Shown here: positions 39,627 to 47,589 of the stretch, one piece after another
How the letters are laid out: each line of letters starts with the position of its first letter
How positions within the stretch are numbered: position 1 is the stretch's first letter
Assembly (NCBI RefSeq): GCF_016026235.1
Contig: NZ_CP065613.1
From: Escherichia coli
GTDB lineage: Bacteria > Pseudomonadota > Gammaproteobacteria > Enterobacterales > Enterobacteriaceae
Length of the DNA: 64,000 nt
Strand: one strand, 5' to 3'
Translations under genes and position numbers: made by a program
The notes under the pieces: model-generated
Database searches by the model: none
What the model saw: only the letters and a program-made list of their open reading frames with translations
What the model was told of the DNA's origin: nothing

Positions 39627-40100
39627 TTAATGCAGCATACCTTCATTCACTTCAAAGAGTAATTCTTCCATTTGCTGGTACGCATTTTCGCAGCCCGGAA
39701 TATTGAACAACACCATCAGGATTACCCATTTCAGGTCTTCCAGGTCGAACTCTGCGGTATCCAGCGCGAGCACTCGCTCTATCACCATTTCACGGGTTTC
39801 AAGGTTAATCACCTGAATTTGCTCAAGGAAAAGCAGAAAACCACGACAGCTGGCATCCAGTCTTTCACACTCCTCAGGGGTATAAATACGCATGGAGAGT
39901 GGATCAGAGGCCAGTTGCATCGGTTCTGCCAGTCCTTCCTGATAATCCGCAAGCTTTTCCAGCCAAAGCAGGGCATTGTAGATATCTTCTCGATCAAATC
40001 CTGCGTCGGTAAGATCCTGTTCAAGTTTGTCTTGATCCACACGCAACTCAGCTTCTGTGTGAATATAGGTTTCAAACAAATACATTAGTACGTCGAACAT
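39627..40100 (-). CDS. smg: Smg protein
   Basis: 157 aa acidic protein [23 protein letters not shown]; conserved dprA-smg pair. Confidence 0.9.
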
Positions 40101-45562: not shown

Positions 45563-45866
45563 CCCTTTGATTATCAAGGATTAATTAAATTCATTCCTGG
45601 CAGGAAAATGGCTTAACATTTGTTAGACTTATGGTTGTCGGCTTCATAGGGAGAATAACATGAGCATTATTAAAGAATTTCGCGAATTTGCGATGCGCGG
45701 GAACGTGGTGGATTTGGCGGTGGGTGTCATTATCGGTGCGGCATTCGGGAAGATTGTATCTTCACTGGTTGCCGATATCATCATGCCACCTCTGGGCTTA
45801 TTAATTGGCGGGATCGACTTTAAACAGTTTGCTGTCACGCTACGCGATGCGCAGGGGGATATCCCC

Positions 45867-47149
45867 TGAGGGATCCCCAGAAAATTTAGTAAACCATTAT
45901 CATATTGGTATACCGTTGCTGTAGAACTTTCAGCCCTGCGTCAAGTGACAGTGTGTTTAGTATGAGTGGAGAATGTCGAATCACATTCTCCGCCAGTTTT
46001 AATAACGAGATGACTCGCCTGTGCTTCACTGTATTTGCCTGATATTTATGATGTATCCCTTTGTTTTCCAGGCTGAAACCGCTTAACCACATAATGATAC
46101 TGGCTAATGTTGCGATCAGACTCAATACCGTGACCCGCCCAGATGAATGACTGGCACCAAACCGTAGTCCAAATCCCCAGCGAGGATTTTTTTCATCCCT
46201 GAAATTTTGCTCAATTTGCATTCTACGGCTGTATAATTTCATTACCTGTTTTGGCGAGAACTCAGTACTGTTTGTGAAAATAAACCATGGTGATTTCCCG
46301 GCAGTACGAGCTTTAGCCGTCACCGATGGTCTGGTTGCTCTTTCCTTCGAGCGTTTAAATCTACGACCTTTAGGCTTACTTTTATAAAGATAAAAATGCC
46401 CTTCATGTTGTGCATTTTTATCTCGACCCAGCAGGCCTTCACCTAAATAAATTGCTGTCGTTGATGCTTTTGTGCCTGAGTCCGACACCTTTTCCCAGCC
46501 ATTACCAACATTGTAATAATGATTGCCCAGTACCCGGCAAATATAGGTCCAGCCACGGGAGCGGAGCTGTTGGAACCATCGCCCCTGAAAACCGGCATCT
46601 GTAATAACAATGACATCAGTCCCGGGGGAAAAGCACTCAGCAAGCGATTCCAGAAAACGCTCATGTACATCTGCATTCGCTGTCTGTGATGATGGAACGA
46701 CACAACTCATCAACGGTAAAGAACGCCCGTCACATGCCAGGCTTGCCCGCAAAAGCTGAAAACGAGAGGCATGATAAGCACTCCAGTCAATGAGTATCAC
46801 AACACGAGACATTCCCCGCGTAATCTTTTGGGTAATTCGCTGAAAAATGGTGGAAACCTCATTTTGCAAATGTCGATTCCCCAACAGTCGATCCACCCGC
46901 TTTATTTTGTTTTTAACTGATGCCGTACCGGTTAAATGACGCCCGATACTGGTAAGTGTGAGGGAAGCGCCATTTATTACAGCATTAGTTGCGTCAATCA
47001 GTGATTTTTGACGGTAAAGATGCAAAGGGGCCAGTATGTTGTTAAGGAAATTTTGGCATAATGAACGTGCAGGCATAGTGGTGATCTCCTTGAAATTGTT
47101 AGCACAATCAATTAGATCACATCTCACTATGCCTGTCTTGTTTTCTGGG
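45867..47149 (-). mobile_element. IS4-family (IS10-like) insertion sequence, about 1283 bp, with terminal inverted repeats and a 9-10 bp target-site duplication
   Basis: Left end CTGAGGGATCCCCAGAAAA versus reverse complement of right end CTGAGGAATCCCCAGAAAA (18/19 match); flanking direct repeat GGGATATCCC at 45857-45866 and 47150-47159; single transposase ORF inside. Confidence 0.88.
45886..47076 (-). CDS. IS4-family DDE transposase
   Basis: 396 aa from [10 protein letters not shown] with [25 protein letters not shown] and [15 protein letters not shown] (Y-2-R-3-E-6-K) motifs resembling the IS10 transposase but clearly diverged. Confidence 0.88.
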
Positions 47150-47370
47150 GATTCCTCAGGGGATATCCCTGCTGTTGTGATGCATTACGGTGTCTTCATT
47201 CAAAACGTCTTTGATTTTCTGATTGTGGCCTTTGCCATCTTTATGGCGATTAAGCTAATCAACAAACTGAATCGGAAAAAAGAAGAACCAGCAGCCGCAC
47301 CAGCACCAACTAAAGAAGAAGTATTACTGACAGAAATTCGTGATTTGCTGAAAGAGCAGAATAACCGCTC

Positions 47371-47589
47371 TTAACAAGCGCCTGAAAGCAGAAGACCAGT
47401 GGTAAAAAAGTGATTTACTTTCTTGCCACTGGCCTCCCAGTTCCCCCGATTGCCATGTTTTCCTTTTCGCATGTAACTACCTTTCCCTTTCTTATTTTTC
47501 TCTACGCGCTGTCGGAATAAGGGATCATGTAGTAATGCTTCTATCGCATTATCCTTTATCTGCCCTTTAGTATGCTGATATCGGCTCAT
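47371..47589 (-). CDS. arfA: Alternative ribosome-rescue factor A (YhdL)
   Basis: 72 aa [72 protein letters not shown]; 3' end overlaps the mscL stop. Confidence 0.92.
47384..47424 (-). promoter_or_regulatory. Stem-loop in the 3' part of the arfA ORF (candidate RNase III processing hairpin)
   Basis: Inverted repeat ccagtgg ... ccactgg flanking an A/T-rich loop inside the last ~15 codons; arfA mRNA is known to be processed to a non-stop transcript. Confidence 0.45.

Follow-up and report, generated by a model that had tools for sequence, protein, structure and literature searches.

An insertion sequence interrupting mscL in Escherichia coli is very probably an intact copy of ISEc60

The interrupted mscL locus

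The stretch analysed here, referred to as the window, is 64 kb (64,000 nucleotides) of E. coli DNA. It contains a genuine insertion sequence (IS) on the minus strand, and the features of this element and its surroundings are collected in Table 1. The IS lies within mscL, the gene for the large mechanosensitive channel. The mscL frame begins at 45660, is broken after ...GGGGATATCCC by CTGAGGGATCCCCAGAAAA, and resumes at 47160 past ...TTTTCTGGGGATTCCTCAG; the gene is inactivated in the host strain. The original prediction had given the IS a span of 45867..47149 (1283 bp). The presence of an IS is confirmed, while its boundaries are corrected to 45866..47159 (1294 bp), the earlier span being short by one base at the left and by ten at the right.

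The element differs in composition from its surroundings, with a G+C content of 44.4% compared with 50.4% in the window. Both of its ends appear as an inverted repeat in the output of a repeat finder, together with the flanking direct repeat. The terminal inverted repeats (IRs) are 19 bp long and identical at 18 of the 19 positions, and a search of the window with the end pattern returned 2 occurrences against a chance expectation of 0.02. Ends of the form CTGAGG(G/A)ATCCCC, resembling those of IS10, had been predicted, and alignment bears this out in both respects; the inside end of IS10 reads CTGAGAGATCCCC (the reverse complement of the 3' end of the IS10 copy). The distal end contains GATC (CTGAGGGATCCCC) and the proximal end does not (CTGAGGAATCCCC), because the single mismatch between the repeats abolishes the GATC of the proximal end. 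A parse with a 9-bp target-site duplication (TSD) and a 1295-bp IS, in which the tenth base belongs to the element, was rejected: the 10-bp repeats of relatives with the same CTGAGG termini end in G or T.

A 112-aa open reading frame (ORF) on the plus strand (47036-47374) begins inside the IS and continues, in frame, through the C-terminal half of mscL (AVVMHYG...). Its expression seems unlikely, since its ATG lies upstream of the presumed outward promoter.

Table 1. Position, strand and supporting evidence of the features at the interrupted mscL locus (window coordinates)
Feature	Position	Strand	Sequence or evidence
mscL 5' part, codons 1 to about 69	45660..45865	+	ORF translation; RefSeq partial mscL pseudogene at the orthologous locus
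Target-site duplication, left copy, 10 bp	45856..45865	.	GGGATATCCC
ISEc60 element, complete	45866..47159	-	IR search; repeats; 99.9% full-length matches annotated ISEc60; composition
Transposase-distal IR (equivalent to IS10 inside end)	45866..45884	+	CTGAGGGATCCCCAGAAAA; Dam site GATC at 45872-45875
Transposase gene, 396 aa plus stop	45886..47076	-	ORF; Pfam; NCBIfam; invariant residues; Tn5-like model fold
Candidate outward promoter (pOUT equivalent), predicted	47054..47062	+	Extended -10 TGgCATAAT; start codon +15..+20; read from sequence
Predicted antisense RNA (RNA-OUT analogue)	47069..47147	+	Fold; hairpin then UCUUGUUUUCU; position and arm spacing as for RNA-OUT in IS10
Leader hairpin	47070..47135	-	Inverted repeats; RNA fold; covariation in 45 relatives including IS10
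Presumed transposase promoter Dam site (pIN equivalent), predicted	47111..47118	-	GATCTAAT; overlaps presumed -10 TCTAAT
Transposase-proximal IR (equivalent to IS10 outside end)	47141..47159	-	CTGAGGAATCCCCAGAAAA, near-complement of the distal IR
Target-site duplication, right copy, 10 bp	47160..47169	.	GGGATATCCC
mscL 3' part, duplicated 10 bp included	47160..47374	+	ORF translation; RefSeq annotation

Transposase

The element has a single long ORF on the minus strand, free of interruptions and frameshifts. Its start codon, ATG at 47076, is preceded by an SD sequence, AAGGAG, at 47086-47091, and RefSeq places the start at the identical position. The protein matches Pfam PF01609 (DDE_Tnp_1) at 2e-20 and NCBIfam NF033591 (IS4 family) with 360 bits against a cut-off of 152 bits. 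The catalytic triad consists of D97 (46786-46788), D160 (46597-46599) and E289 (46210-46212), and the YREK signature of Y282, R285, E289 and K296. The DDE and YREK residues are invariant across 16 homologues, in an alignment of the window transposase with 14 relatives and IS10. Members of the IS4 family have one frameshift-free transposase ORF, a DDE triad and the signature Y-(2)-R-(3)-E-(6)-K (De Palmenaer et al., 2008; PMC2266710); the single uninterrupted ORF, the triad and the YREK spacing found here agree with this definition. The IS4-family signature had thus been recognized correctly in the 396-aa ORF. The IS10-like blocks quoted with it, including DAGF, are likewise in the ORF, except that the one given as FQANTV reads YQANTV here and FQANTV in IS10.

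An AlphaFold model of the transposase (mean pLDDT 81) has one strong match in the PDB, the Tn5 transposase (Foldseek E 7e-10, TM 0.59). A sequence profile run against the PDB gave no meaningful match, and the relationship with Tn5 is visible in the fold comparison alone.

No stop codon closes the transposase frame at the proximal end, and it continues open into the DNA beyond (47077-47200, minus strand). Open frames of this kind account for the 557-680-aa "fusion" proteins in public databases, in which, for example, aldehyde dehydrogenase A or YdbC is joined to the ISEc60 transposase; these fusions are almost certainly gene-calling artefacts.

Relation to IS10

The IS10 subgroup of the IS4 family is described as having a length of 1200-1350 bp, 5'-CT ends, YREK and 9-bp direct repeats (De Palmenaer et al., 2008; PMC2266710, Table 1). 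The element agrees in size (1294 bp) and in its ends (CTGAGG at both). It departs in its direct repeats, which are 10 bp long; the 9 bp of that table are a typical value, however, rather than a hard rule.

Over their first 13 bp, both ends are like those of IS10, and the organisation is equal, as would be expected if the element were an isoform of IS10, or ISVsa5 itself. That reading is refuted by comparison with an IS10/ISVsa5 copy taken from RefSeq. The transposases are 35% identical over 375 aa (BLASTP, E 1e-73), and DNA identity over a global alignment is about 47%, where an isoform would need over 95%. The lengths are 1294 and 1329 bp, the duplications 10 and 9 bp, and the Rfam RNA-OUT model scores 98.8 bits on IS10 and finds nothing in this element. 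The earlier estimate that the transposase is roughly half identical to that of IS10 was therefore too high. The accompanying description of the element as IS10-like without being IS10 stands: it belongs to the IS4 family and has YREK, IS10-type ends and IS10-type organisation, at 35% amino acid identity. It is also shorter than IS10, as had been proposed, its size being 1294 bp instead of the ~1283 bp then given.

Identity with ISEc60

The window transposase is residue for residue WP_001111632.1 of RefSeq, named "IS4-like element ISEc60 family transposase". An orthologous insertion at the same mscL site is present in E. coli FDAARGOS_943 (NZ_CP065615.1), where the CDS is also annotated as WP_001111632.1. 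The two elements differ at a single nucleotide, 46141, and because this difference is synonymous (a TCT/TCC serine codon) the window protein is exactly WP_001111632.1. By megablast against 5,426 complete E. coli genomes, full-length matches at 99.9%, all annotated as ISEc60 family, were found in 14 E. coli genomes, and such matches also occur in many plasmids. The exact protein is indexed in 512 blocks of a public assembly collection. ISEc60 is named in IS-typing papers based on MobileElementFinder, for example in a mobile-element table for E. coli ST58; the literature found on ISEc60 and IS1330 consists of passing mentions.

RefSeq applies the ISEc60 label narrowly. Copies at 98.8-99.9% carry the name, and those at 98.7%, 85.5% and 82.5% are just "IS4 family transposase"; protein clusters at 98% identity are likewise labelled just "IS4 family". 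This narrow labelling implies that the reference sequence in ISfinder probably differs from the window copy by no more than roughly 1-2%, the RefSeq naming serving as a proxy for near-identity to ISfinder's ISEc60 entry. Judged by this proxy, the full-length DNA identity of 99.9% is above the 98% at which the original prediction would have the element be a routine known IS, and above the 95% below which it would qualify as new.

The original prediction had allowed that the element may be uncatalogued. A new member of the IS10 group would fit the amino acid identity of only 35% to IS10, and a RefSeq "family" name need not imply near-identity, the link to the ISEc60 entry itself running through such naming. 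This is nevertheless very unlikely, given that RefSeq reserves the name for copies at 98.8-99.9%, that the exact protein is WP_001111632.1, and that typing tools derived from ISfinder detect ISEc60 in E. coli. The element is already known, and the hint of novelty is unsupported by the exact protein match, the 99.9% DNA copies annotated ISEc60 and the use of the name in IS-typing papers. It does not count as a discovery: it has been named, its exact protein is in RefSeq, and identical copies number in the hundreds. The statement that the element is none of the resident K-12 IS types is correct; the host itself is not K-12, its flanks matching E. coli FDAARGOS_943.

We conclude with high confidence that the element is an intact copy of the catalogued ISEc60, an IS10-like member of the IS4 family, inserted at about codon 69 of mscL in a strain near-identical to FDAARGOS_943, for which homology suggests cut-and-paste transposition and probable control of the IS10 type.

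At position 46141 the window has A, whereas 14 other main-type copies have G (Ser312); the 98.9% variant family discussed below also has A. The A may represent homoplasy, a retained ancestral state or a sequencing difference.

Target preference and activity

Perfect 10-bp repeats flank ISEc60 at 15 distinct sites, which give the target consensus g|GGGAWWTCCC|c. The target often lies within a longer, GC-rich, hairpin-like palindrome. The tenth base of the repeat is always C at ISEc60 sites, which, taken by itself, would allow it to be part of the element. Among 16 copies of relatives with CTGAGG termini, the 10-bp repeats end in G, T or C. Since the tenth base varies in relatives and thus lies outside the element, the stagger in the ISEc60 clade is 10 bp. 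The IS10 control and a Legionella relative have 9-bp duplications. Sister elements prefer other end triplets, CCCnnnnGGG and CGCnnnnGCG.

A further 13 copies of the main type are on record, in 12 distinct places. Each departs from the window copy at 1-2 bases, and most have perfect 10-bp duplications. The FDAARGOS_943 chromosome holds ISEc60 at no fewer than 38 places. These near-identical dispersed copies and the number of occupied places indicate an element that has been recently active and is expanding. The window copy is complete and probably active. It belongs to an IS expansion that has reached at least 38 places in the sister genome, and such expansions drive pseudogene formation and rearrangement.

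Some copies have unusual flanks. Two ISEc60 copies in GCA_031665325.1 have flanks that do not match, which is consistent with inversions or deletions through recombination between copies in a many-copy genome. In one tandem pair the copies are 10 bp apart (GGGATTTACC) and the outer 10-bp flanks are identical (GGGATTTTCC); the pair was met twice (locus L005, 1418-4015, and locus L006, 114-2711, being the same) and suggests that a second copy inserted into the target that the first had duplicated. A 99% variant copy in GCA_014333065.1 (JAACOX010000058.1) is flanked by TGGTCTTCCC and the reverse complement GGGAAGACCA, with no direct repeat.

Insertion into mscL

The 12 kb around the element differ from FDAARGOS_943 (NZ_CP065615.1) by 5 SNPs. 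FDAARGOS_943 has in addition a 917-bp IS5-family insert with a frameshifted transposase between smg and dprA; the window is without this insert, at about 40086-40089. The window thus stems from a sister strain or another isolate and not from the FDAARGOS_943 assembly.

A second strain, 2023CK-01509 (NZ_CP141736.1, about 4123963-4125677), also carries ISEc60 in mscL. The site and orientation are identical to those in the window, and the A at 46141 is common to both copies. Such agreement would fit an element that is ISEc60 by sequence, yet an old, fixed and inactive relic, its insertion being shared by descent between the two strains. Several observations make this reading improbable. The ORF, IRs and TSD of the window copy are all intact, and the copy is a single synonymous base away from copies spread in related genomes. 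The mscL copy of 2023CK-01509, on the other hand, is of a separate variant at 98.9% identity, which has 14 differences and 5 amino acid changes, and the 14-16 differences of this variant recur elsewhere in 2023CK-01509, in unrelated assemblies and on plasmids. In addition, insertion-free strains match the 12-kb query at 99.5% and are thus closer to it than 2023CK-01509, which matches at 99.1% with the IS included and has flanks that differ by about 0.85% (91 mismatches in about 10.7 kb). The recurrence of the variant's differences in other copies argues against shared descent and for two independent hits on a hot spot in mscL. Two independent insertions into the near-perfect target palindrome in this gene would be a simpler reading than common ancestry.

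Control region

The start of the transposase gene is enclosed in a hairpin. Counted from the proximal end of the element, bases 25-52 pair with bases 67-90, the latter containing the SD sequence and the ATG. An outer stem joins 47125-47135 with 47070-47080 and includes the ATG, and an inner stem joins 47108-47120 with 47081-47093 and includes the SD sequence. The sense strand, as it would occur in read-through RNA, folds at -37.9 kcal/mol (z -6.5), and the antisense strand at -31.6 kcal/mol (z -5.7), followed by UCUUGUUUUCU. An RNA that begins past the upstream arm is unstructured (-0.5 kcal/mol).

The hairpin is conserved among relatives by covariation. In 45 leaders, 20 distinct start-codon arms pair with their own upstream arms at a mean of 10.1 of 11 positions, compared with 8.7 when the arms are swapped; the maximum of 200 swaps was 9.2. 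The arms are 40-46 nt apart throughout the 45 leaders, and 43 nt apart in IS10. MAFFT and RNAalifold, applied to the same leaders, recovered the outer stem alone, with compensatory changes in 8 of its 9 consensus pairs. The inner stem was missed because it is misaligned in distant members, and per-sequence folds and arm matching with the swapped control were used instead. In the per-sequence folds the inner stems vary in sequence yet stay paired. The counts of G·U and A·C (16 and 21) give no sign of which strand's hairpin is under selection. By analogy with fold-back inhibition in IS10, the hairpin would block translation of read-through transcripts.

The other strand of the hairpin is predicted to encode an antisense RNA analogous to RNA-OUT. 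The Rfam RNA-OUT model maps onto the equivalent hairpin in IS10 (98.8 bits; IS10 locus 1546-1615). Within 45700-47350, RF00240 (RNA-OUT) had no match at E ≤ 1, the one hit being a chance lncRNA match at E 0.8. The model performed as it should on the IS10 control, and its failure here is therefore due to divergence, a hairpin being present. The hairpin of the much larger ISEc60/IS1330-like clade, represented by the 45 leaders, belongs to no Rfam family, and RF00240 recognizes IS10-like members alone.

The sequence GATCTAAT, at a distance of 42 bases from the proximal end, corresponds in the alignment to GATCAAAT of IS10. Its GATC and final T are invariant or nearly so in 45 distinct leaders. 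At that place in IS10, the transposase promoter has a Dam site overlapping its -10. At the position equivalent to TGgCATAAT, IS10 carries ATTTTA, the complement of TAAAAT, the pOUT -10. The position of TGgCATAAT also fits the 5' end of RNA-OUT as mapped in IS10. A scan for sigma-70 promoters and terminators found neither of the two proposed promoters; it returned five promoter-like hits, all intragenic and no more than in shuffled sequences. With this outcome of the scan and the lack of an RF00240 match, the promoters and the antisense RNA are assigned by their positions, and they are best regarded as candidates.

Proposed mechanism

IS10 and IS50 are known to move by cut-and-paste transposition catalysed by DDE residues. 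By homology with IS10/Tn10 and IS50/Tn5, the 396-aa DDE transposase would bind both CTGAGGRATCCCC ends, cut the element out and paste it elsewhere. The ends would be joined to target DNA cut with a 10-bp stagger, preferably at the palindrome GGGAWWTCCC.

Expression of the transposase may be kept low by a control module of the IS10 type. One Dam site would overlie the presumed promoter, and a second is present in the distal end alone. In transcripts that arrive from outside, the leader hairpin would hide the ribosome-binding site and the start codon. On the opposite strand, the hairpin may form the stem of an antisense RNA complementary to, and pairing with, the transposase mRNA at its 5' end. 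In ISEc60 both promoters, this RNA and any effect of Dam methylation are putative, and are drawn from the correspondence with IS10.

Relatives and distribution

The closest relatives found in a protein search, at 87-91% amino acid identity, are in Klebsiella. Others at 70-73% occur in Salmonella diarizonae (70%), in an unnamed cluster and in Buttiauxella (73%). A large set at about 53% (52-55%) includes members from Yersinia, Serratia, Pectobacterium, Pantoea, Xenorhabdus, Salmonella and Photorhabdus; one of its entries is named "Transposase for IS1330" in UniRef. When one genome was scanned per species, 79 loci were obtained, which reach as far as Oceanimonas, Legionella, Colwellia and Pseudoalteromonas. 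Carrier plasmids come almost entirely from Escherichia (E. coli and E. albertii), two records being from Shigella. About half of these plasmids are conjugative.

These comparisons tentatively suggest a wider view, in which ISEc60, together with the IS1330-like elements, may represent a branch of the IS10 group that experiments have yet to characterise. Its distinguishing properties would be a 10-bp stagger, targets that are GC-clamped palindromes, and a module of Dam sites, fold-back hairpin and antisense RNA that the RNA-OUT model does not see. The features as such look sound, the antisense RNA being putative. If this view holds, the choice of GC-clamped palindromes would lead to repeatedly used hot spots, of which the mscL site is one. 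For IS annotation and for Rfam, the length of the duplication (10 bp), the palindromic target, the double hit on mscL and the covarying hairpin could be of use, as incremental additions.

Comparison with known systems

The window copy is closest to the copies of ISEc60 annotated in RefSeq, with which it shares the same 396-aa protein, the length of 1294 bp, the same ends and 99.9% of the DNA sequence. The other copies examined have G at 46141, where the window copy has A, a synonymous difference.

The IS1330-like elements and the closer relatives have CTGAGGRATCCCC ends, a transposase of 396-397 aa, a leader hairpin with GATC and 10-bp duplications, as ISEc60 does. They differ from it by 9-48% divergence and in the end triplets of their targets, and some of their leaders are 13-14 nt longer.

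IS10, or IS10R of Tn10, of which ISVsa5 is an isoform, likewise encodes one DDE/YREK transposase of about 400 aa between ends of the form CTGAnnRATCCCC. It has the same GATC asymmetry between the inside and outside ends, a GATC adjoining the presumed -10 of the transposase promoter, and a start-codon hairpin with equal spacing. The IS10 leader is 25 nt longer than that of ISEc60, which is without the region that presumably contains the IHF site of IS10. The IHF consensus WATCAANNNNTTR has no occurrence in the element. The absence of the consensus and the deletion of this region suggest that regulation is not identical to that of IS10. The duplication is 9 bp in IS10 (control copy) and 10 bp in ISEc60. 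The target of IS10 is NGCTNAGCN, whereas that of ISEc60 is GGGAWWTCCC.

The transposase of IS50/Tn5 (1MUS, 3ECP and 4DM0) is more distant. It has the same overall fold as that predicted for the ISEc60 transposase, and DDE and YREK chemistry is shared by family membership. Sequence identity, however, is 12-13%, and the ends and regulation of IS50 are unlike those of ISEc60.
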